Source: Trueperaceae bacterium (GTDB taxonomy: Bacteria; Deinococcota; Deinococci; Deinococcales; Trueperaceae). Taken from it: a stretch of 64,000 nt of DNA. Position 1 is the first letter of the stretch, and the number at the start of each line of letters is the position of its first letter. The translations under genes were made by a program, and so were the position numbers. The stretch is taken from positions 2,336,001 through 2,400,000 of the forward strand of contig CBDCDZ010000004.1 of NCBI GenBank assembly GCA_965215565.1. The letters are read 5' to 3'. Shown piece after piece: positions 131 through 61,440 of this stretch. The notes beneath the pieces are model-generated. The model saw only the letters and a program-made list of their open reading frames with translations. It was not told the origin of the DNA and searched no databases.

Positions 131-263
131 TAGCAATTAACATAAGTATTGATTGGAATAGCGCAAGTATCATTCTCAAATGTGCGTGCTGCTTACGAAG
201 TTTTCGCAAAGCGAAACGGTGTTCTACATCGTGAGAGCGTCTCAAACCAAATGATACTTGCTA
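131..263 (+). mobile_element. MITE-like element, family 1 (110-bp scaffold plus 23-nt insert at 193-215)
   Basis: TA-TAGCA...TGCTA-TA ends; near-identical to 56644-56753 and to the reverse complement of 42300-42409 except for the insert TTACGAAGTTTTCGCAAAGCGAA. Confidence 0.85.
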
Positions 264-5879: not shown

Positions 5880-7031
5880 GTGCTCACGTCCGCTGTGTCC
5901 CCAACACCAACCCGAAGGATACGGGTTCTTTTCGTCTTGACAAAACTCAACAAGAACGGCGCAATCTTGAGCGTGCTAAGCACGATGAGGCATCTAGAGC
6001 CCAGTCGCTTTGAGCCCGTCCTATTTCTGGCTGAGCGCCCCGCTGACCCCGACTACTGGGACCCTCTTTTAAGGGGAATTCGCGTAGTTTACGGATTAGC
6101 GCCTGAGCGCACCTGGCCGCAGCGCTCTCCCGCTTGGTTAGGGCGACTTATCGGCGCGGCGCGGCGCGCGCACGTTTTAGTCGGCGCGCAAGAGGCGTCC
6201 TCGACGTACTTCGCGCTGCTCGCCGCCAAGCTCACGCACCGCCCCGTTTTAGGGCTTATCCAAAACTCGCTCCCGGACCACTTGGAGCATCTCCCCAAAA
6301 TTCACCGCCACCTCGTCAAGTTTCTCTATCCGCACCTTACGGGCGCGGTGGCAGTTTCTGACGGCGTCAAAGAGAGCTTGGAGCGGCTTGTGCCCGCGCT
6401 GGAGCAGCGCATCACGACGGCGTACAACCTCATCGAAGTGGAGCGGATTCGCGCAGCGTCGCGCGCGTCTATAGTGGGCGCTGCGCCGCCCTCTCACCCT
6501 TACATCATCGCGGTGGGACGACTCAGCTATCAGAAGGGATTCGACCTCTTGATCCGCGCGTACGCGGCGCTTAGGGCGCAAGGTCTTGAACATACGCTCG
6601 TCATTTTGGGTGACGGCTTAGAGGAAGACAACTTGCGGCGGCTCGCCGCGCAGCTCGGCGTCGAAGCGCACGTTCTCATGCCCGGCTTTATCGACAACCC
6701 GTACCCCTGGGTTCGCGGCGCGGCGGTGTTCGTCTCGAGTTCGCGCTACGAGGGCTTCTGCCGCGTCATCGCCGAAGCGCTAGCCGTCGGCACGCCCGTG
6801 GTTGCCACCGACTGCCCGAGCGGCCCCGCTGAAGTCTTGCGGGGCGGGCGCTACGGCGTCCTCGTCGAGAGCGGGGACCCGGCTGCGCTCGCCGAGGGCG
6901 TTCACTCGCTCCTCTGCGACCCGGCGCGGCTGCGAGCCTTGGGCGAGATAGGGCCTGCCAGGGCGAAAGCGTTCGCAGTGGGTGCAGCCCCGCACGCCTT
7001 CGAAGAGGCGATTTTGAGGGCGCTGTCTTAG
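5880..7031 (+). CDS. Glycosyltransferase family 4
   Basis: AVGRLSYQKGFDLLIRA and SSRYEGFCRVIAEALAVGTPVVATDCPSGP. Confidence 0.92.
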   Translation: MLTSAVSPTPTRRIRVLFVLTKLNKNGAILSVLSTMRHLEPSRFEPVLFLAERPADPDYWDPLLRGIRVVYGLAPERTWPQRSPAWLGRLIGAARRAHVLVGAQEASSTYFALLAAKLTHRPVLGLIQNSLPDHLEHLPKIHRHLVKFLYPHLTGAVAVSDGVKESLERLVPALEQRITTAYNLIEVERIRAASRASIVGAAPPSHPYIIAVGRLSYQKGFDLLIRAYAALRAQGLEHTLVILGDGLEEDNLRRLAAQLGVEAHVLMPGFIDNPYPWVRGAAVFVSSSRYEGFCRVIAEALAVGTPVVATDCPSGPAEVLRGGRYGVLVESGDPAALAEGVHSLLCDPARLRALGEIGPARAKAFAVGAAPHAFEEAILRALS

Positions 7032-8580: not shown

Positions 8581-9561
8581 TTAATTGCCGCTCTCTTCCC
8601 TGAAGGGACGCTCGCTCTGCGGCTCGTCCTCGGCGTCCGCTCCCTCGCCCTGCCGCCGCTGCGACTCTTCAAAGAAGTAACGGTAGGTCTGGTTGTTCGG
8701 CTCGAGCTGCGAAGCGTTTTGATAAAAGGTCTCAGCGGCGGCGTAGTTGTTCGTTTCGAAGGCGGTGCGCCCCAGATAAGCCCACGCCGCCGGATAGCGG
8801 TCATTCAGGCTCGTCGCCCGCGCGAACTGCTCGCGGGCGGCGCGCCGTTCGCCCGCTTCGTAAAGCCGAACACCCTCTCTAAAGGCCGTAACCGCCTCCG
8901 TACCGTAACGCGCGCGCTCCTGAGCGAGCCTCAAGAAATACTCGGCGCTGGCGTCGTCCGGTTTAAGCTCGGCGACCTCTTGCCAATAGGTGATCGCTCT
9001 TTCGGGGCGGTTTGTTTCCAAGAGGATGCGCCCTGCCCAGGTGTACGCCTCGGGGTCTTCGGGAACGAGGTCAATGACCTCTGTGTAGAGGCGGAGCGCC
9101 TCGTCTTTGTCGTTTCGGCTGTAGCGCTCATACGCTAGCTCCGTGCCGACTTCGACGGCTTGCTCTCTCATCACGCGCGTGAGCGTGCCGCCCGCTTCTA
9201 AGTAGGCTTGCCAGTTTTGAAACGCGGGACCGTAAAAGTTTGTCACGCTATAGACCTCGGCTAAAAAGCGTAGCGGCTCGGGGCTGTCCGGGGCGAGTTG
9301 CGCCGCCTCGCGCCCGTAGCGAATCGCCTCTCGGAAGAGGGGCTGATCGGGGCGGTACGTGTCGTAGGTTTGGAGCGCTTCGGCGGCGTTCGCCTGGGCG
9401 CGGTCTAGGGTGCGCCTCGCCTCTTGTGAAAGTGGCGCGCTGATCTGGGCGGACGCAAAGGAGATGCAGAGCGCCAAACCTATGGTGAGCCAGCTCGAGC
9501 CTAAGCGCCGAGCACGCGCGCGCCTCTGCGCTACGTCATCCATTCTATCGTCTCGCTTCAT
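8581..9561 (-). CDS. Secreted tetratricopeptide repeat protein
   Basis: Signal-peptide-like region ending ASA; repeated helical units ending L.P.(D/N). Confidence 0.82.
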   Translation of the reverse strand: MKRDDRMDDVAQRRARARRLGSSWLTIGLALCISFASAQISAPLSQEARRTLDRAQANAAEALQTYDTYRPDQPLFREAIRYGREAAQLAPDSPEPLRFLAEVYSVTNFYGPAFQNWQAYLEAGGTLTRVMREQAVEVGTELAYERYSRNDKDEALRLYTEVIDLVPEDPEAYTWAGRILLETNRPERAITYWQEVAELKPDDASAEYFLRLAQERARYGTEAVTAFREGVRLYEAGERRAAREQFARATSLNDRYPAAWAYLGRTAFETNNYAAAETFYQNASQLEPNNQTYRYFFEESQRRQGEGADAEDEPQSERPFREESGN

Positions 9562-9907
9562 CTTTACGTTCTCCTCTACTCAGCACTTAGGTGTTGACAA
9601 GGTAGTTTGAGCACCGTAGTCACGCCGCTACATATCGCGGAACTCGCTGGGGCGGACGCCAGACCACGCTTCCTTGACTGAGAGTGTAGCAAATCAACCT
9701 CAGCTCGACCGTATGTAAAGGATGAAGGGCGCGTTTAGATTGCTCCGCTCTTGGTCACCGGCAACTCACCACGTACTGTGCGAACAGTGACACGATATCT
9801 GTAAGAGGTTGAGCAAGGGGTACAACCCCCTGTTTATCATATAGAAACGGCGCAAGAAGCGCACGTTAGCATTCGACTTGAAACTACTACCTCTATGTAA
9901 ATACCTA

Positions 9908-10148
9908 TAGCAGTTCCACTTATCGTTGCTTGAACGGAGTTATTCCCGGAGGGAAACTTCGTAAGCGAAGCAACACTTCTCCGCAGATCTCAGCCTGTCA
10001 AGGCTAGCGGAATTTCATCACCTAAAGTGCGTGCTAATTACGAAGTTTTCCGATTACGAAGTTTTCCGCAAGAAAGGAAACGATGTTCTTTTTAGTGAGA
10101 GCGTTGCTTCGCATGGCTTCGCCCAAGCTGACCAGATGATAGCTGCTA
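9908..10148 (+). mobile_element. MITE-like element, family 1, expanded to 241 bp by nested micro-inserts
   Basis: TAGCAGTTCC...GACCAGATGATAGCTGCTA ends; removing four insert blocks leaves about 107 bp that aligns with the 61330-61440 copy. Confidence 0.8.
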
Positions 10149-10698
10149 CTACTTATGTGAATACGAAGCGAGACGCCTTCTGCTAACCAGATACCAGACG
10201 TGCCGAAAACTCGTCAACATCCACGTCTCGCACTTATCCGGTAGATGTATGTGACAATCCTACGCGGGGGGTCTCTTCTCGTGAGGTATCTTGTAGAGCG
10301 TTTCGCTTAGTTTTGTGAAAGCACCTCTTCTCCTGGTGGACGTTTCACCGAGTCGCCTTTTTACTGCTACGAAACACCGCACGTGACACTGCGCGAAACA
10401 CCACTACGAAACAACTGTGAAATATTCGCCTCTGTAAAGTAGCTGGAGGATGCTTATATGAAAGGTAATCATATGAATGTAGCGTTAGAAATATGGTTTA
10501 CACTAAGGTAAAGTACGGGCGGAAGAGATTGCGCTTAGGTTGAGCGGCGAGACTTATCTAAAGCTGAGCGAGGGATTTAGGCGGCAGGGCTAAGCTGCGA
10601 AACTGAGCAGCAAAGCTGGGCAGTGAGACTTCAATAGAGAGTAGGCTCATGAGGCTGAAACGGAAATATAACGGCGCGAGCATTGTGAGCGTCAAGCG

Positions 10699-11949
10699 GT
10701 GAATATCTGGTTCGTCACCATGAATTTTCCTATCTTGGCAGAAACGTTCGCTATCAGCGACGTACGCACCCTTAAAGACGCCGGGGTTGACATCTCTGTT
10801 CACGCGCTGCGCTCCGCGCAGAGCGCCGCGCCCAAGTTGACCGAACAGCGCTTGGCGGACGTGCCGATCACGCAGAGCCACGCGGGGGCGATATTGGAGG
10901 GCGTGGCGCTCATGTTCAAACGCCCTAACGTCGCCTTTGCGCTGCTCGCTTGGATCACGCGCCACAGCCTCAAAGGTCCGAAGCGCAGCAGGCGCTTGGA
11001 GCAGCTCGTAAAGAGCGCGCTGCTCGCGCCGCGCACGCTGCAGCTTTTTGACGCACTCGAGCGGAGCAAACCCGACGTTGTCCACCTCTTCTGGGGACAT
11101 TATCCGGCGATGTTCGCGTACCTCGTGCAGCGCTATCACCCAGAAATCGTCAGCTCGGTCTTTTTGGGCGCGTATGACCTCAAAACGGCGTATGGCGGCA
11201 GCGCGCCTGTAGCGCGCCAGGCTGACGTCGTCTGGACGCACGCGCACGCCAACGTCGAGGAGATTAAACGGCTTGGGGTAGGCGGGAGCCTCATCCACGT
11301 CGCGTACCGGGGCGTCGATCTGACGCGCTTTAAGGAGGTGGATTGGCAGCGCAAGGTCAAAAGGCGCATTGTGACAGCGGGCAGGCTCGCCTCGTTCAAG
11401 AAGATGGACGACGTGCTTAGAGTCTTTCAGCAGACGCTGGAGAGGTGGCCCGACGCGACTTTGGTGGTACTCGGCGACGGACCTGAGCGCGAACGCTTAG
11501 AGGCGCTCAGCCGCTCGCTCGGCGTCGCTCACGCAGTTACCTTCCGGGGTCACGTCGCGCACGAGGACGTTTTCGTAGAGATGGCACAAGCTGAAGTCTT
11601 TTTGCTCATGTCGCAGCACAGCGCGGAGCGCCTGCCTAACGTCGTTAAAGAGGCGATGGGCTGCCGCTGCGTCTGCGTCACGACGCGGACGCCCGGTATC
11701 GAGGAGCTGCTCGTTCACGGCGAACACGGCTTCGTGGTGGCGCGAGGCGACGTGGCGGACGCCGCTCACCACGTCGCGGAGGTCTTCGCCGATATGGGTG
11801 TGGCGCAGCGGTTGACAGGAGCCGCTTACACGCACCTAAAGCGCCACTTCGACATCCACAGGCTCGCAGAATTTTATAAGGACACGTGGCGTACGCTCCT
11901 GAGCGAGAAAGGGACGCGCGACTCAGCAGCGGAGCCTCAAAGCAGATGA
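10699..11949 (+). CDS. Glycosyltransferase family 4 (WcaL-like)
   Basis: FPILAETF N-terminus, TAGRLASFKKMD, ERLPNVVKEAMGC. Confidence 0.9.
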   Translation: MNIWFVTMNFPILAETFAISDVRTLKDAGVDISVHALRSAQSAAPKLTEQRLADVPITQSHAGAILEGVALMFKRPNVAFALLAWITRHSLKGPKRSRRLEQLVKSALLAPRTLQLFDALERSKPDVVHLFWGHYPAMFAYLVQRYHPEIVSSVFLGAYDLKTAYGGSAPVARQADVVWTHAHANVEEIKRLGVGGSLIHVAYRGVDLTRFKEVDWQRKVKRRIVTAGRLASFKKMDDVLRVFQQTLERWPDATLVVLGDGPERERLEALSRSLGVAHAVTFRGHVAHEDVFVEMAQAEVFLLMSQHSAERLPNVVKEAMGCRCVCVTTRTPGIEELLVHGEHGFVVARGDVADAAHHVAEVFADMGVAQRLTGAAYTHLKRHFDIHRLAEFYKDTWRTLLSEKGTRDSAAEPQSR

Positions 11950-13396: not shown

Positions 13397-13492
13397 AGCA
13401 GTTCCAAAACATACTGAGACGGATGAGCGCAGCTTAACGGAACCTCATCTCAGAATGTGCGTGATTTTGTCTCAGTGTGTCGTAGAACTGCT
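13397..13492. repeat. Palindromic derivative of MITE family 1 (two left ends, inverted)
   Basis: AGCAGTTCCAAAACATACTGAGAC ... GTCTCAGTGTGTCGTAGAACTGCT; the interior matches the family 1 left half. Confidence 0.7.
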
Positions 13493-13712
13493 GACGGATT
13501 AGACCCGAGCCAACGTTTAGGTAAAGCAGACGAACCGCCGTCCCGGTCCACTTCGTAAAATTCTATCGCTCCTCTCACCCGTAAAGGCGGTAGGGTAACG
13601 TCGGTATGAACGCACACTCCTCTCAGCTTACGTGCTCCGGCGGCGAGCCGCCTCTCACATCGAAACGTTCGGCATTGAAACGCTCAGCATTACAACGTTC
13701 AAGAGGTCCGCA

Positions 13713-15544: not shown

Positions 15545-15740
15545 TACACTGTCCGCTAAAAAATGAACCATGTCATTCTGAACGTAACGAAGTGGAGTGA
15601 AAGAATCTCGTCTTCCATTCCCAACTAGCCGAGATTGCGAGTTACGAAGTTTTGACATAGTCAACCGAGACCCTTACGCCTTCGCCGAAGCTTCACGTCA
15701 CCCCGTTCCCGCTGGCTACTTCGTGAACGGGGTGACAACA
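15545..15740 (+). repeat. REP-like/MITE element, family 2, with a 23-nt insert at 15642-15664
   Basis: Aligns with the reverse complement of 28238-28397 (GCTAAAAAAT..CATGTCATTCTGA.CGTA...GAAAGAATCTC...GAGATTGCGAG..CGAGACCCTT); right boundary uncertain. Confidence 0.75.
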
Positions 15741-16838: not shown

Positions 16839-17978
16839 TCACACAGAACCCGGCATCACTTCGGCCAGAACACGTTCGAAGCGCTCTACTGTCGCCTCGG
16901 GCGTGAACTGCGCGGCGCGGCGCGGTCCCCTTTCACGCAGCGTCTGTAGCCGCGCCGGATCGCACAGCAGCGAGCGGACGCCCTCGGCGAGCGCCGCCGG
17001 GTCTTCGTTGGGCACCAAGACGCCGTAATACCCGTCCTGCAAGACCTCAGCGGGACCGCTCGGGCAGTCGGTGGCAACCACGGGCGTACCGACGGCTAGC
17101 GCTTCGGCGATGACGCGGCAAAAGCCCTCGTAGCGCGAACTCGAGACGAACACCTCCGCCTTCTCCATCCAGGCGTACGGGTTCTCCTGAAAGCCCGGCA
17201 TCACCACGTCGTCCTCTAAACCGAGTTCTTGAACGAGCGCCACAAGGCGCGCTTTCGCTTTGCCTTGACCCACCAAGACGAGTCGGTGGCGCAGCGCCGG
17301 TTCACGTCTTTTAAGTTGCGCGTAAGCGCGGAGCAAGAGGTCGAAACCTTTTTGGTACTCGAGCCGCCCCACTGCTAAGATGTAGGGTCTGGCGGCGTCT
17401 GCTTGGGGCACGTCCTCCTGCGAACGCGCCTGCGTTTTGGCGATGTCGAGCGGGATATAGACGGTGCGGGTGCGCCCCTCTAGCTGCGGCACGAGGCGCG
17501 TGACGCTCTCCTTGATGCCTTCGGAGATCGCGACGGCGCGCGTCAGGTGCGGATAGATGAGCTTCGTCAGCGTCTTGTAGCGGGCGGGCATCTGGGCTAG
17601 GTGCTCGGGTAAGGAGTTGCGCACGAAACCCACCGAGGGCTTGCCCGTGAGCTTCGCGGCGACAATGGCGAGAAACGTCGGAGCCATCTCGAGCCCGCCG
17701 ACGATCACGTCAGAACGCCGCGCCGCGCGCAGAAGTTTGGCGAAAACCTGCGGGACGTGCTGCGCATTGGGTTTGCCCTCGCTCACGCCGTAGGTGACGG
17801 GCACCCCGGAAAGCAGCTCGTGCCAAGGCTCGTCGCGGCGCTCCAAGACGAAGAGCGCGGGCGCATAGCGCGCGGGGTCTAGGTGCTTCATCGTCGTGAG
17901 CGTGCTGAGGACCGCCCCGTTGCGCTGCAGCGCGCTCAGGATGAAGAGGACGCGAACTCTGCTTGTCTCAGGACCCAT
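16839..17978 (-). CDS. Glycosyltransferase family 4, paralog of 5880-7031
   Basis: AVGRLEYQKGFDLL; identical C-terminal peptide SSRYEGFCRVIAEALAVGTPVVATDCPSGPAEVL. Confidence 0.92.
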   Translation of the reverse strand: MGPETSRVRVLFILSALQRNGAVLSTLTTMKHLDPARYAPALFVLERRDEPWHELLSGVPVTYGVSEGKPNAQHVPQVFAKLLRAARRSDVIVGGLEMAPTFLAIVAAKLTGKPSVGFVRNSLPEHLAQMPARYKTLTKLIYPHLTRAVAISEGIKESVTRLVPQLEGRTRTVYIPLDIAKTQARSQEDVPQADAARPYILAVGRLEYQKGFDLLLRAYAQLKRREPALRHRLVLVGQGKAKARLVALVQELGLEDDVVMPGFQENPYAWMEKAEVFVSSSRYEGFCRVIAEALAVGTPVVATDCPSGPAEVLQDGYYGVLVPNEDPAALAEGVRSLLCDPARLQTLRERGPRRAAQFTPEATVERFERVLAEVMPGSV

Positions 17979-41830: not shown

Positions 41831-42364
41831 ATGCTCCGCCGTCACGCTCTACCTTGTTCCCCACATAATGATTTACATGACGACCCGCACAATGACCTGC
41901 GCGACAGCTTTTACAGTAACCTCGTATCACGCTGCACCCTCGCCCTACTCGAGCGCTATTTCACCTGGCGCACGCTCGGCCTGCTCGCCTCTTGTCTGCG
42001 CCTAAGCAAACAAGAGGTTGAGACGGTCGTTCGCTACGCCGGCAGCTTGGAGGGACTCGAGGACCTCAGCTTGCAGGATTTAGAAGGGAGTGGCGTTAGC
42101 GAAAGCGCGGCGCAGAAGCTCTTCTACTTCGCGCAGTGGGACAAGCTTCAGCGTCACCTAGAATGCTACGACGCCCTGCCGGAGGACGCTGACCTCAGCG
42201 CACTTCTCGCTACCTTGACACCTATCCGCGAACGTCACTTTCGGCGCGCGCACATAAGTGCGTCGCTCATCGCTAGCTACAGGGCGTACCTCCGACATAT
42301 AGCAAGTATCATTTGGTTTGAAACGCTCTCACGATGTAGAACACCGTGCAGCACGCACATTTGA
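41831..42364 (+). CDS. Hypothetical protein (possible helix-hairpin-helix); C-terminus encoded by the inserted MITE
   Basis: GSLEGLEDLSLQDLEGSGVSESAAQKL resembles an HhH motif; last about 21 codons lie in 42300-42409. Confidence 0.55.
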   Translation: MLRRHALPCSPHNDLHDDPHNDLRDSFYSNLVSRCTLALLERYFTWRTLGLLASCLRLSKQEVETVVRYAGSLEGLEDLSLQDLEGSGVSESAAQKLFYFAQWDKLQRHLECYDALPEDADLSALLATLTPIRERHFRRAHISASLIASYRAYLRHIASIIWFETLSRCRTPCSTHI

Positions 42365-42409
42365 GAATGATACTTGCGCTATTCCAATCAGTACTTATGT
42401 TAATTGCTA
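42300..42409 (-). mobile_element. MITE-like element, family 1 (110 bp)
   Basis: Reverse complement differs from 56644-56753 at only about 3 positions; TA on both sides. Confidence 0.88.
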
Positions 42410-43526: not shown

Positions 43527-43857
43527 GGCATTCTCCTGATGGGCTTAGGTAGCAACAAAAAACCGCGGGCAGTGTTGCGCGCAGAAACCGCAATCCTCAG
43601 TTACTGACCTTTGGCATTAAGGTAAGCTAGGCGAGAGTATAGCGGTCTCCACGGTGAGAGACAGTTATACAGCATGATACCTAACCTCTAAACGAGTGAT
43701 GGTGTAAATGACCCAGGCGTCGGAGAAGTTCCGTGTAGGCAAGTCTTACACCGACTCACCTTGAAAAGGTCGCAAAAAGTCACATCATCTCAACGAGTAG
43801 AAAGTGTTAGGAGTTCCAAGACATACCGAGACCGGGTGCCGCAGTTCTCAACTCATA

Positions 43858-44015
43858 TAGCACTTCTAGAACTTACTGAGACAGATTGCCGCAGATCTCT
43901 GTCCGCAAGGACTAGCGGGATTTCATCTCTGAAAGTGGGTGCTCATCAATGCTTTCTACAGTGAGAGTGTTGCTTTGCAAAACTTACGTACACTCAAACC
44001 AGATGATACCTGCTA
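43858..44015 (+). mobile_element. MITE-like element, family 1, with two micro-inserts (43897-43921, 43970-43990)
   Basis: TAGCACTTC...CAAACCAGATGATACCTGCTA; 158 bp minus inserts is about 111 bp. Confidence 0.8.
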
Positions 44016-44240: not shown

Positions 44241-44351
44241 TAGCAGGTATCATCTGGTTTGAAACACTCTTACTGTAAAGAACACCATCTAGCACGCACA
44301 TTGTGAGATGACATCTGCGCTCATCTGTCTCAGTATATTTTGGAAGTGCTA
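44241..44351 (-). mobile_element. MITE-like element, family 1 (111 bp, subfamily b)
   Basis: Reverse complement TAGCACTTCC...TACTGAGACAG..AGCGCAGAT...GTGCGTGCT...CAAACCAGATGATACCTGCTA. Confidence 0.85.
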
Positions 44352-48788: not shown

Positions 48789-51700
48789 TCAGGGGGTCAG
48801 GAGCGCGGGCTCGTCGGCGACGGGCTGCCTGTCGTCTTGGAGGGGCTCGAGTACCTCTTCGGTGTTCAGCACCGAAATCGCGTCCTCGCCGCCCTCCGCG
48901 TTGCCAAAGGGGAGCGCGAGGCTGCCCCAGTCATCATGGTCACGCAAGGTGCTCAAGTCGTCGTCGTCGTTGAGATCGAACTCGAGGTTGCTCTGCGCCG
49001 CGCCGTCGTTGTTGAAGTCGACGAACGCCGCACCCCGCCCGAGCCCACCATTTTCATTTAAGCTGCGTTCATTGAGAGGCGCGCCGCTGCCGTCCGAGTA
49101 GTCGATAACGAAATCGTCGCCGAAGGGCGAGTTGGCGAAGTCGCGGAGGTCGCCCTCGAAGTAGCGGCTGTAGAGGTAGCGCTCCCCGGCGGCGTCGCCC
49201 GTCGCGGGTCCGATGCCCGCCACGGTGTAGAGGTAGTTCATCACGCTCAGGTAGTTGGGCTTGTCGTTCGTGTCGTCGTCGCCACCATGCTCCAAGCCTA
49301 AGTTGTGCCCGAGTTCATGCATGAACGTACCAGCCTGAAAGTTCGCCATAACCGCTTCGCTGTAGCCTAAGTTACCCAGGGTCACGAAGAAGTCGTTGCC
49401 GCCCACCTCGCCCCTGCCCACGGAGCCGGGCGCGCCGTTCACCTGCTGCGACAGCGCGAACACCGCGTAGTGAAACACTTGGCGGCGCGTGATGTCCATG
49501 TATTCGGCTTTGATCTCAAAGAAGTTGGCGTGTCCTTCGCCCGTTTCGAAGAAAGCAATGCCTTGACTGAGGGGCACTACGGGTCTGCCGCCGCCTAAAT
49601 TATAGGCGTCCGGCGAGAACGACGCGCTGAAGAGTGTGCCCGCGTCGAGGTGAAGGCTGATGTCTTCCTTCGCAAAGGCGGCGACAACCTTATTCAGCGC
49701 GGCGCGTTGCGGCACTACGCCCGTGTCGGCGATGTTCATATAGTCCACCTCGACAAAGATGTCGGACTGCGCGGTGCGCGCGCCCATTGCGAAGAGGTCG
49801 AGCCCCGCGAAGGTGCCACCCGCGGCTTCGGCGCTGTCGGGGATGCCGTCGTCGTCGTCGTCACGCGCGCCATTAGGCACGTCGTTCGGACCGCCCGCCG
49901 TCGCGAAGGTGTTCAGGCTCCAGTCGTCCGCAGCGTCCGTGTCGGTATTGTCTTCGTCTCTCGCTAAAGATTCAGCGCCGCCTAACGCGGGCGCACCGCC
50001 GCCGCCCCACGCGCCCGCGCTCGCGGGCTCCTCAGCGCTGTTGCCAAAGCGCACGAAGTCGAGCGTCGCGCCGTCCTCTAGGAGTTCGGCGAAGCCGTCC
50101 TCACTCCAAGCGGGCACGGCGTCGCCCTCACGCACGTGCACGTGACGCGGGCCACCAAACATCTCATCGTCCACTTCGCTGATGATGAGCGCGTAGCCGC
50201 CCGCGGAGATATTGAGGGGCGGCAGCGAGAAGACTGCGTTGCCTCTCGCTCTGAAAGGCGAGGTGCGCCCGCTCGAGGGGCTGCGCAGCGCGTAGTCCTC
50301 CAAGTTGAGGGTGTCATCCGAAGCGTTGTAGACCTCTACCCAGTGGGCGCTGCCGGGACCTGAGTTGCTCACTTCGGTGATGACGAGCGTCGGCTCGGCG
50401 GCGCTCGGCGCGTCCGGCTGGACCACCTCGACGAACTTGCTCGCCGTCGCGCGCGCCCCGTCGTCGTCCTCTAAGGTGAGCGTGACGGTGTAGTCACCTG
50501 CTTCTTCGTAGACATGCTCGACTTGGACGCCTTCGCCCGCTTCGCCGTCGCCGAAGTCCCAGGTGTAGGCGGCGACGCGGCCGTCCGGGTCTGTTGAGGC
50601 GGAGGCATCGAAATTCACAACGAGGGGCACGTCGCCCTCACTGGGCGCGAAGCTGAAGAGAACGCTCGGCGCTTGATTGGGCGTTTCGGGCGGCGGGGGC
50701 GGCGCGGCGCTCACCTCGAAGGTTTTCTCTGCTTGGGCGCTCTTGCCGCCGTCGTCGGTCACGGTGAGCCCGACGGTGTAGGTGCCCGCTTCGGCGTAGG
50801 TGTGGCTCACGCTCTCGCCCTCGCCCACTTCGCCGTCGCCGAAGTCCCAGGTATAGGAAACGACGCGGCCGTCCGGGTCTTCCGAGGCTGAGGCGTCGAA
50901 CGCGCCTGCTAGTTCGTCAAAGGTTGCGCTAAAGGCAGCTTGGGGGGCGCTGTTCTCCGGCGGCGTCTGCGCCACCTCAACGGACTTCGTTACCTGTGCA
51001 CTCGCGCCCTCGTCATCGGTGACGGTGAGGGTCACGTCGAACGTGCCCGCGGCCGCGTAGGTGTGGCTCACGCTCTCGCCTTCACCTGTTTCACCGTCGC
51101 CGAAAGTCCAAGTGTAAGCCTCAACACTACCGTCCGCATCTTCCGAGGCGGAGGCGTCAAAGCTCACTGACAGCTCAGCCGCCGAAAAGGTGAAGTCGGC
51201 GCTCGGCGCTTCGTTGAGGTCGGGCGTGCCGGGCGGAGACGCGCTCACCACCTGAACGGACTTCTCCACTGTGCTGCTTTTACCCTCGTTATCCGTAACG
51301 GTGAGCGTGACGGCATACGTGCCCACCGCTGCGTAAACGTGACTCACGCTTTCGCCCTCGCCCGTTGCGCCGTCGCCGAAGGTCCAAGTGTAGGCGGCGA
51401 CGCTACCGTCCGCGTCCGCCGAGGCGGAGGCGTCGAACGTCACACTCAACGGGTTAGCCTCAGCCGCCGAAAAGGTGAAGTCGGCGCTCGGCGCTTCGTT
51501 GAGGTCAGGCGTGCCGGGCGTGTCCGGCGCGTCGCTCACGATGATAGTGGCAGTGGCGCTCTTGCTGGAGTCGGCGACGCTCGTCGCCGTAAGAGTGTAT
51601 TCGCCGGACGCAGTCGGTGCGGTGTACGTCGCCGCTGTCCCGTCCGCCGTGAAGCTCGAGTCCCCGCTGCTCGCCGCCCACGTCACCTCGGCGTTATCCG

Positions 51701-52403
51701 TCCCCATGACCTCTGCGCTAAAGGTGCGGCTCGCTCCCGGCTCGAGCGTCTCGCTCGCCGGAGTGATGCTCACGCCGATTTCGCTCACCGTAATGGTGGC
51801 CGTGGCGCTCTTGCTGGAGTCGGCAACGCTCGTCGCGGTGAGCGAATACGTACCTGGTGCATCCGGCGCGGTGTACGTCGCCCTTGCGCCGTCGGCCTCT
51901 ACCGCGCCGCCCTCCACTTGCCAGGTGACGCTCTGGTCGTCCGCTTCGGTCACGGACGCCGTGAAAACTTGCGTCTGCCTCGGCGCGAGCGCCACCACAC
52001 CTGGGCTCAGTGTGACGTTGACCTCGCCCGGCGGCAACACGATGGGCTCCGACACGCTGACCTCTACCGTCTGCTCGGCGCTACCTAGCTCATTGGTTGC
52101 ACGGAGCGTGTAGAGCGTGCTTTCGCTCGGCGAGACGACGACGTTGTCGCTTCCCGTTACGTCGCCCAGTCCCGACGTAGCCGGTTCTGATGCGAGCGTG
52201 ACCTGGGGCGGCGGCTCGCCGGTGACACGCCAACTCAGCTTCGTGGAGCCTCCCTGATCGAGCGTCTCCGGCTCAGCGCTAAACGCGCCGATCTCCGGCG
52301 CTTGGTCTGGGATAAAGGGGGCGGAGGTCTCCTCGTCGTCCGAACAAGCGACGAGAGAGATGAGCAGGAGGAAAACTAGGTAGAACCAGCGAATATGCAA
52401 CAC
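48789..52403 (-). CDS. Large surface lipoprotein: Ig-like repeats, four PKD domains, lamin-tail-like domain, metzincin-type protease domain
   Basis: Lipobox LVAC; 4x FDASAS.D.DG....YTW.FGDG; LVITEV..HWVEVYN; HELGHNLGLEH followed by SVMNY Met-turn. Confidence 0.9.
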   Translation of the reverse strand: MLHIRWFYLVFLLLISLVACSDDEETSAPFIPDQAPEIGAFSAEPETLDQGGSTKLSWRVTGEPPPQVTLASEPATSGLGDVTGSDNVVVSPSESTLYTLRATNELGSAEQTVEVSVSEPIVLPPGEVNVTLSPGVVALAPRQTQVFTASVTEADDQSVTWQVEGGAVEADGARATYTAPDAPGTYSLTATSVADSSKSATATITVSEIGVSITPASETLEPGASRTFSAEVMGTDNAEVTWAASSGDSSFTADGTAATYTAPTASGEYTLTATSVADSSKSATATIIVSDAPDTPGTPDLNEAPSADFTFSAAEANPLSVTFDASASADADGSVAAYTWTFGDGATGEGESVSHVYAAVGTYAVTLTVTDNEGKSSTVEKSVQVVSASPPGTPDLNEAPSADFTFSAAELSVSFDASASEDADGSVEAYTWTFGDGETGEGESVSHTYAAAGTFDVTLTVTDDEGASAQVTKSVEVAQTPPENSAPQAAFSATFDELAGAFDASASEDPDGRVVSYTWDFGDGEVGEGESVSHTYAEAGTYTVGLTVTDDGGKSAQAEKTFEVSAAPPPPPETPNQAPSVLFSFAPSEGDVPLVVNFDASASTDPDGRVAAYTWDFGDGEAGEGVQVEHVYEEAGDYTVTLTLEDDDGARATASKFVEVVQPDAPSAAEPTLVITEVSNSGPGSAHWVEVYNASDDTLNLEDYALRSPSSGRTSPFRARGNAVFSLPPLNISAGGYALIISEVDDEMFGGPRHVHVREGDAVPAWSEDGFAELLEDGATLDFVRFGNSAEEPASAGAWGGGGAPALGGAESLARDEDNTDTDAADDWSLNTFATAGGPNDVPNGARDDDDDGIPDSAEAAGGTFAGLDLFAMGARTAQSDIFVEVDYMNIADTGVVPQRAALNKVVAAFAKEDISLHLDAGTLFSASFSPDAYNLGGGRPVVPLSQGIAFFETGEGHANFFEIKAEYMDITRRQVFHYAVFALSQQVNGAPGSVGRGEVGGNDFFVTLGNLGYSEAVMANFQAGTFMHELGHNLGLEHGGDDDTNDKPNYLSVMNYLYTVAGIGPATGDAAGERYLYSRYFEGDLRDFANSPFGDDFVIDYSDGSGAPLNERSLNENGGLGRGAAFVDFNNDGAAQSNLEFDLNDDDDLSTLRDHDDWGSLALPFGNAEGGEDAISVLNTEEVLEPLQDDRQPVADEPALLTP

Positions 52404-56643: not shown

Positions 56644-56753
56644 GAGCAATTAACATAAGTACTGATTGGAATAGCGCAAGTATCATTCTCAAATGTGCGT
56701 GCTACACGGTGTTCTACATCGTGAGAGCGTCTCAAACCAAATGATACTTGCTA
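56644..56753 (+). mobile_element. MITE-like element, family 1 (110 bp)
   Basis: Near-identical to 131-263 minus its insert; TA flanks. Confidence 0.88.
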
Positions 56754-61329: not shown

Positions 61330-61440
61330 TAGCAGTTCCACGACATACTGAGACAGTTGAGCGCAAATATCATCCCTCGAAGTGCGTGCTAGACTGTTCA
61401 TCTCTCACTAAGGGTGTTTCTGACCAGATGATACCTGCTA
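61330..61440 (+). mobile_element. MITE-like element, family 1 (111 bp, subfamily b)
   Basis: TAGCAGTTCC..ATACTGAGACAG.TGAGCGCA...GTGCGTGCT...GACCAGATGATACCTGCTA-TA. Confidence 0.83.

Follow-up and report, generated by a model that had tools for sequence, protein, structure and literature searches.

In a genome of the Trueperaceae, a 111-bp MITE has repeatedly taken up SDR-type hairpin inserts of 17-28 nt, which were likely carried as single-stranded DNA and joined at a nick beside an A by a putative lineage-restricted enzyme, an account of their movement to which we give about an even chance. The source genome (G000; 4.49 Mb, four contigs), whose same-genus relatives belong to the Trueperaceae (phylum Deinococcota), contains the window C4:2336001-2400000, i.e., the whole stretch of 64,000 nucleotides that was analysed. 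The copy in focus lies at 9908-10148 of this window, in the divergent intergenic gap that separates a TPR gene from a glycosyltransferase gene, and is the only one among 256 parsed copies in which all four main insertion sites are filled. The evidence supports a role of the MITE scaffold as a landing pad, since each of its roughly 300 copies is neutral intergenic DNA with several targets.

The 241-bp copy and its scaffold family

The first-pass annotation had described this copy as one MITE with six modules, two of them nested in others. All six are present, with boundaries, set here by comparison with empty copies, that shifted by 1-2 nt for three modules. The features of the copy and of related elements in the window are as follows.

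9905..9907, + strand, left 3-bp target-site duplication CTA
9908..10148, + strand, whole element: 111-bp non-autonomous MITE scaffold with ends TAGCAG...CTGCTA and four filled sites
9908-9930, 9973-9988, 10014-10037, 10080-10104 and 10126-10148, scaffold blocks
9931..9972, + strand, site 1: module C (21 nt) interrupted by a nested A; double GNA mini-hairpin on the + strand
9944..9964, - strand, nested module A (21 nt) within the site-1 C; 6 copies have this A variant, in 4 different C variants
9989..10013, + strand, site 2: module B (net 25 nt), a hairpin with a GTCA loop
10038..10079, + strand, site 3: module A (21 nt), whose GAA loop holds a second A
10054..10074, + strand, inner module A (21 nt); no identical contig over it
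10105..10125, - strand, site 4: module C (21 nt); hairpins GGC-GAA-GCC / TGC-GAA-GCA on the - strand
10149..10151, + strand, right target-site duplication CTA
131..263, + strand, sister MITE with one A module (193-215) at site 3
43858..44015, + strand, sister MITE with B (43897-43921) and a 22-nt C (43971-43992)
42300..42409, - strand, empty MITE
44241..44351, - strand, empty MITE
56644..56753, + strand, empty MITE
61330..61440, + strand, empty MITE
15642..15664, + strand, module A (23 nt) in an unrelated REP-like repeat; empty forms of the site occur elsewhere in the genome

Scaffold blocks and inserts (21+21, net 25, 21+21 and 21 nt) add up as 23+42+16+25+24+42+25+21+23 = 241. The scaffold itself had been recognised, at a length of about 107 bp that comparison with empty copies corrects to 111 bp; it differs from the empty copy C4:196433-196543 by 9 mismatches, of which the outer blocks hold 0 and 2. 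The C that had been placed on the minus strand at 9929-9972 starts at 9931 (21 nt plus the nested A), the nested A starts at 9944 instead of 9943 and measures 21 nt instead of 22, and the last C ends at 10125 instead of 10127 (21 nt instead of 23). The coordinates of B (9989-10013), of the A/A block (10038-10079) and of its inner A (10054-10074) stood unchanged. The base after B (10014) is T, where empty copies have A. The site beneath the A/A block, GTGCT(AA/GC)^ACG, is indeed filled in the 131-263 copy as well, by a 23-nt A at 193-215 with a different stem.

Several other features were observed in the window. A partial left end (43808-43857) lies directly upstream of the 43858-44015 copy, and a truncated scaffold with a B'-like remnant (13397-13494) stands head-to-head with a second left end. 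Positions 9804-9892 belong to a second repeat family of ~89 bp, in which 13 of 20 blast hits are near full length. A pair of inverted GT4 glycosyltransferase paralogues (5880-7031 and 16839-17978) shares a 212-bp stretch that is 88% identical, and 48789-52403 codes for a PKD-repeat surface protein with a metallopeptidase-like end. An Rfam search of the whole window gave no match.

Read support was assessed with the assembled contigs of two runs made on a single sample, which is probably the source. Contigs enter the element from both unique flanks without differences (9300-9936 and 10112-10800) and one matches 9983-10051 exactly, while none from these two runs crosses the entire 241-bp element. 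At 10071 and 10073 all overlying contigs, most likely derived from other copies, read G, so that the innermost A (10054-10074) has no read confirmation. No polymorphic or intermediate state of the locus was seen in the sample contigs, and the orthologous spacer in the sister genome G001 (~377 bp) is without the element. An assembly artefact or a plain IS end is ruled out by the length ladder of the family, the target duplication and the recurrence of the nests.

The family was collected with a scaffold profile seeded by 131 near-full empty copies. Its 283 end-to-end matches form a ladder with steps of ~21-25 nt (peaks at 110-113, then 132-136, 153-164, 172-191, 197-208 and 215-267 nt), in which some of the longest matches are spurious spans over two copies. 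Removal of duplicates and of spans >270 bp left 270 copies, 154 of them with the 3-bp target duplication. Parsing of 256 copies (14 irregular ones were left out) showed 117 to be empty at sites 1-4, and 62, 40, 36 and 1 to have one to four sites filled; intermediates therefore exist.

The scaffold is a MITE by its TAGCAG/CTGCTA terminal inverted repeats, its lack of coding sequence and its copy number (211 exact right ends), and its empty form folds unremarkably (z +0.96). No cognate or autonomous IS with these ends was found in the source genome, the fetched relatives, plasmids or viral contigs. Right ends also form tandem arrays with a period of 23-27 nt (G000 C4:179865-179946 and 1994337-1994383; G238 C160), and two copies (C4:3659042 and 4098703) hold a 103-104-nt inverted-repeat element at site 3 (TAAGTACT...CTACT).

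Insertion and structure of the modules

Single inserts peak at 21-25 nt (189/297 inserts). Besides A, B and C there are the module families D, E, B', G and H (17-28 nt), and compounds reach ~100 nt; the scaffold has four main insertion sites plus the right end. The C pattern has 73 genomic matches against 1 in an order-4 Markov genome, and the strict A pattern 36 against 0 for the reversed control.

Insertion of A and C is precise and without duplication. Site 3 is filled in 76 of the 182 copies with ^AC(G/A) and in 0/74 without it, and site 4 in 65/216 with the target motif against 1/40 without, where the AC(G/A) rule was derived from the data on which it was scored and the copies are kin. 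Over 38 context clusters, the bases downstream of A are A in 29, C in 21 and G in 28, i.e., A(C/G)G, the count of 29/38 being partly forced by the search grammar. Module B uses the GCAGRTATCATC motif at two places, within the scaffold and in reversed form at its right end, and it nearly always replaces the target A: T or C stands there in 75/79 B-filled copies against 11/177 others, and A is retained in 161 of these 177.

Three pairs with identical scaffolds differ in occupancy, as do 91/118 pairs with <=2 differences (7 columns beside site 2 masked). Parsimony changes relative to filled copies number 69/94, 54/76 and 58/66 for sites 2, 3 and 4, on a weak tree of 104 columns without shuffled control. 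The proposal of repeated, site-biased insertion into a landing pad is thus borne out by the target rule, by identical filled and unfilled scaffolds, and by an IS110 element that lands there too.

Modules also enter unrelated repeats. Module C occurs in a second MITE family, where an empty copy of the site is 100% identical over 58 nt, and within IS-end repeats of G001 and G002. Whereas 67/98 strict A modules adjoin the scaffold, 6 of the 31 others lie near period-7 (heptamer) repeats, against a 2.7% background, and A modules enter heptamer repeats of the kind that flank PF05635 genes. Long ORFs make up 78% of the chromosome and hold few modules (4/101 A, 3/67 C, 4/89 B).

Old, immobile scaffold copies have received modules as well. 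A survey of orthologues in 2.15 Mb of G001/G002 (about a quarter of the two genomes) reduced 118 and 385 module hits to 15 and 16 locally alignable orthologous sites, mostly noise. One A module is common to both species at an orthologous site, and about six old orthologous scaffolds, judged by eye, carry different inserts in different species. A stricter filter gave 40 ends with 3 orthologues, all empty. The flanking genes at 124 metagenome loci are 68-80% identical, which places these loci too far away for orthologous tests. Related MITEs of other lineages in metagenomes (L044-L166, e.g., L067, L077, L129, L144) carry hairpin inserts of their own, some replacing ~12 nt of scaffold.

The scaffold right end occurs in 9/201 genomes of the order, all of this family, and in metagenome contigs, which show other hairpin inserts. 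The A pattern was found in 3/301 genomes of the phylum, all of this genus, C in 5/128 genomes of the family, and B in 0/5 scaffold-bearing genomes of other genera. Two module-poor genomes, G210 and G238, are rich in scaffold ends (71 and 42), with no B and 1 and 0 C, which points to a lineage factor for the modules. G005 and G235 are likewise rich in scaffolds and poor in modules. A search of GTDB for the A pattern gave 47 hits, including one cyanobacterial hit with a poor stem; wider spread was rejected, as the 43 non-Trueperaceae hits are single-copy, near the chance estimate (~50) and mostly without full stem. Four viral hits were likewise at chance level.

Module structure follows one plan. 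The other strand of C reads TG-[3-bp stem, GNA]-N-[TGC GAA GCA], an A-like double hairpin, and A and C are accordingly not independent families. Of 24 C variants gathered solely through their scaffold context, 24/24 have GNA in loop 1 and 23/24 have it in loop 2, and the outer pairs of stem 1 are Watson-Crick in 40/48 cases against 19.1+-3.1 after shuffling, a comparison that overstates significance because the variants are related. Loop 1 of A (n=154) uses all four middle bases (GAA 67, GCA 39, GTA 15, GGA 8) over a stem of only 2 bp (AC/GT), and its loop 2 is more varied (GCA 33, AAA 16, GAA 15, TCC 14). B variants with intact stems have GNA in 14/16 triloops and GNNA in 14/17 tetraloops; nine of these GNNA loops are not GNRA and have a pyrimidine in third position, which RNA GNRA loops exclude.

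Mini-hairpins of this kind are known from DNA. According to passages of PMC13037366, GNA is the only one of 64 triloops that forms the DNA mini-hairpin, which resists exonuclease, binds SSB poorly and melts at 76.5 C, compared with 39 C for its RNA form. The loops of the modules follow the DNA (GNA/GNNA) and not the RNA (GNRA) pattern, and, together with the covarying stems, this DNA mini-hairpin signature suggests a single-stranded DNA stage. For the same reason small RNA, proposed earlier as the molecule to sequence, is probably the wrong one to look for. Conservation of GNA could instead stem from selection after insertion.

Under the favoured account, the MITE would receive 17-28-nt hairpins again and again at short sequence targets, the hairpins likely travelling as single-stranded DNA stabilised by GNA/GNNA mini-hairpins. 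The base of the module stem (GT or terminal T) may pair briefly with the target A(C), and a putative lineage-restricted enzyme would likely join the insert at a nick beside an A. Compounds may then be copied between copies, sometimes with some flank, and 'hot' copies may gain several modules. Against this account stands the absence of strand or transcription bias, which a target in fork- or transcription-exposed single-stranded DNA might predict. No leading/lagging bias was found (p 0.08-0.8; origin placement uncertain), and codon-model gene calls gave no sense/antisense or transcription-context bias. An excess between co-oriented genes, seen with crude ORFs, vanished with these calls (p 0.10-0.46). 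Targets are not enriched in hairpin loops (13/38 against 28%) or at GN^A.

Spread between copies and candidate mobilisers

The first-pass annotation had also read the inserts as an ordered record of events. Order can be read inside nests, and the four sites give no order information relative to one another; the record is limited to nests because compounds also spread as units. A-in-A at the site-3 location occurs in 12 copies, including the 241-bp copy, and A-in-C in 6. A 52-nt B+E compound sits on 23 scaffolds that are a median of 20 differences apart; 18 of these scaffolds hold 11 different site-3 variants, and 5 are empty at site 3. Occupancy is clumped (odds ratios 12, 4.0 and 3.2 in 172 copies competent at both sites), which gene context, chromosomal neighbourhood and mosaicism did not account for.

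A rival account holds that the inserts, rare one-off events with little mobility of their own, spread among the MITE copies mainly because filled MITEs transposed and because copies underwent homologous recombination or gene conversion. Copies with the same variant share flank on one side to 12-36 nt, more than would be expected from distant positions: the variant at site 2 goes with the left arm, and those at sites 3 and 4 go in part with the bases downstream (p 0.001-0.003). Part of the spread is therefore inheritance or recombination and not fresh insertion. The drop of r2 with distance (0.146 to about 0.07), the fixed A-to-T/C change beside B, the recurrence of the same long site-2/site-3 inserts in one subfamily, and a fixed C variant inherited in 5 copies of G199 agree with this. 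However, recombination does not readily place modules in repeats whose match to the scaffold site is limited to 3-10 nt, nor one A variant in 4 different C variants whose copies differ directly beside the junction. Mosaicism is no higher in filled than in empty copies (all 256 pooled), 77 multi-filled copies show 74 distinct combinations, and compensatory stem variants require selection on the module itself. As the main explanation recombination is therefore rather unlikely, though it deserves weight as a contributor.

Fresh insertion as single-stranded DNA, the account preferred here, calls for an enzyme, and no mobiliser common to the carrier genomes G000, G001 and G002 was found among RT, Y1 and the other enzymes tested. 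GxxExxY gave 0/8, and in a Y2 search even the controls gave no match. Small GIY-YIG proteins were rejected since they also occur in module-poor genomes. All three carriers have a four-helix-bundle gene, but so does G235, and the gene is not flanked by modules; these genes (PF05635; L411-L416 in G000, G001, G002 and G235) lie between inverted heptamer repeats. Among 40 candidate genes nested in or flanked by modules, judged by eye, none was convincing.

HUH transposases act on single-stranded hairpins, make no duplication and use a short target on one side. This chemistry suits the modules, which might accordingly be minimal, tiny-REPIN-like substrates cut and pasted in trans by a Y1/RAYT or Y2-like enzyme, and the source genome does encode a RAYT-like Y1 domain. 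That domain is embedded in a 1322-aa frame, presumably of restriction-modification type by its motifs, and goes with a different REP family than the modules. Moreover, Y1 had no match in G001 or G002 (96-97% complete) and is thus present in one carrier out of three, no RAYT gene in the carrier genomes is flanked by modules, and the modules have neither a GTAG/CGTC tag nor a strand bias, which makes an HUH transposase an improbable mobiliser. The Y1 gene (C4:3784710-3788675; L017, L022) contains in-frame REP-derived peptide repeats. The AAGGGG...CCCCTT hairpin, of which the chromosome has 88, is present in this gene and forms the core of the ~89-bp repeat family at 9804-9892.

Strand-specific structure with pairs tolerant of G-T/G-U, the 5/17 B tetraloop variants that are GNRA and the RT genes of G001 would suit movement via RNA, by reverse splicing, RNA-templated repair or reverse transcription of structured transcripts. 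Such a route is distinctly improbable, as GNA triloops with a free middle base and mostly GNYA tetraloops are a DNA pattern, neither G000 nor G002 has an RT, and there is no sense/antisense bias.

The scaffold has a second tenant that brings its own recombinase.

G000 C4:638752-639877 and six more copies (L018-L021), IS110 element with a ~312-aa DEDD recombinase (PF01548, E 3.5e-22)

All seven near-identical copies (1126 bp) are inserted at the right end of the scaffold and have a GA core. This element had been considered as the autonomous parent of the MITE and turned out to be an IS110 inserted in the scaffold. Its left end folds well (z -3.5) and contains bridge-RNA-like putative guides that match the scaffold end and the IS junction, where there is promoter-like sequence. 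The orthologue in G002 (L197) is also inserted in the MITE right end, some IS110 gene is present in all three carriers, and short H and B modules use the same right-end site. That the recombinase and its bridge RNA also mobilise modules as mini-donors is nevertheless highly improbable, because the putative guides match neither module ends nor the ACG target, the modules lack a duplicated 2-nt core, and a length of 21 nt does not suffice for a double-stranded circle. The element confirms that the scaffold is a landing pad, and it does not fit the modules. Deletion remnants of IS110 lie at C4:160183 and 3341776, and a second IS110 family in G002 (L187, L189, L194-L196; ~1175 bp, 8 copies) apparently has another repeat target.

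Comparison with known systems

As far as excerpts of PMC3184786 describe them, bacterial MITEs such as Nezha, RUP and Correia resemble the scaffold in being short, non-coding, multi-copy and intergenic, with inverted ends and a target duplication. The scaffold differs in its asymmetric ends, which match over 6 bp, in having the GCAGRTATCATC motif a second time, 33 bp in from the left end, in the micro-inserts present in more than half of its copies, and in that no cognate transposase was found. The IS110 element resembles IS621 in REPs, as presented in part of PMC11208160, by its DEDD recombinase, 2-nt core and structured end with putative guides that match the target; here the target is the terminal motif of a MITE, of which the element is a co-tenant.

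REPs and REPINs with RAYTs, as covered in sections of PMC3116915 and PMC3733652, are likewise small, palindromic, strand-specific intergenic hairpins that are probably handled as single-stranded DNA, and the CGTC-tagged REPs mentioned there also have no dedicated transposase. In contrast, the modules have no GTAG/CGTC tag, are half as large, enter 3-nt targets one at a time and nest. The d(GCGNAGC)/d(GCGNNAGC) mini-hairpins in the consulted part of PMC13037366 match the modules closely, in that C contains GCGAAGC and module loops are GNA/GNNA, mostly closed by C-G. The natural cases given in that part are replication or transcription origins, whereas the modules are mobile inserts, and the first hairpin of A with its 2-bp stem is absent from the stable forms tabulated there.

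Fungal mitochondrial double-hairpin elements share with the modules two adjacent hairpins, mobility and the lack of a coded enzyme; they are organellar, and there is no evidence of homology. Those of Paquin (2000) are reportedly larger and GC-rich. A citing passage is found in PMC5910586.

The closest likeness is to the SDRs of the Nostocaceae. SDR1-8, reportedly described by Elhai and co-workers in 2008, are said to form compensatory hairpins, to nest in themselves and to reside in minitransposons and heptamer repeats, and we know of no enzyme for them. The claim of an undescribed system was overstated, as nested 21-27-nt repeats in minitransposons had reportedly been described in Nostoc as SDRs. 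The passages on SDRs in PMC5861425, PMC4390886, PMC2884548 and PMC3116915, which touch on them in passing, give a size of ~20-27 nt and precise, site-specific insertion, and PMC5861425 mentions that no SDR was found in HIP1-rich cyanobacteria outside the Nostocaceae. In the literature outside subscription papers, no description of SDR-like elements in Deinococcota was found.

The modules share with SDRs their size (the 21-25-nt insert peak), precise insertion at a short target with empty sites in existence (B instead replaces one base), compensatory stem changes (40/48 against 19.1+-3.1, in related variants), self-nesting (A-in-A in 12 copies, A-in-C in 6) and residence in MITE scaffolds and near heptamer repeats. 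With SDR1-8 compared by description, they appear to work like SDRs in all features tested except host range. Differences are the host, which belongs to the Trueperaceae (Deinococcota) and not to the cyanobacteria, the targets, which are ^A(C/G)G and the MITE end motif and not HIP1, and, against SDR1-8 as described, loops that obey the DNA mini-hairpin rule. The modules were not filed as an SDR1-8 family because the same-genus relatives of their host are Trueperaceae and not Nostocaceae-type cyanobacteria.

How ~20-nt repeats move has been a question since SDRs were described in 2008. The source genome offers hundreds of sites, some filled and others empty, together with a 3-nt target rule and a structural rule pointing to DNA, and relatives with the same MITE and no B serve as natural controls, all of which makes the question testable. 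A bolder, doubtful but possible proposition is that the modules are selfish DNAs of 17-28 nt, the smallest mobile elements, existing transiently as nuclease-resistant single-stranded mini-hairpins whose own stem bases choose a target of 3 nt; a single Trueperaceae lineage would have at least seven families of them and one putative insertion enzyme that would also explain the cyanobacterial SDRs. For genome editing, an enzyme able to write short structured oligonucleotides into DNA with no duplication would be of interest; should conversion between repeats account for most of the spread, the system is a well-documented curiosity. To what has been described for SDRs, the modules add rules for the target and for DNA mini-hairpins, together with the natural controls.
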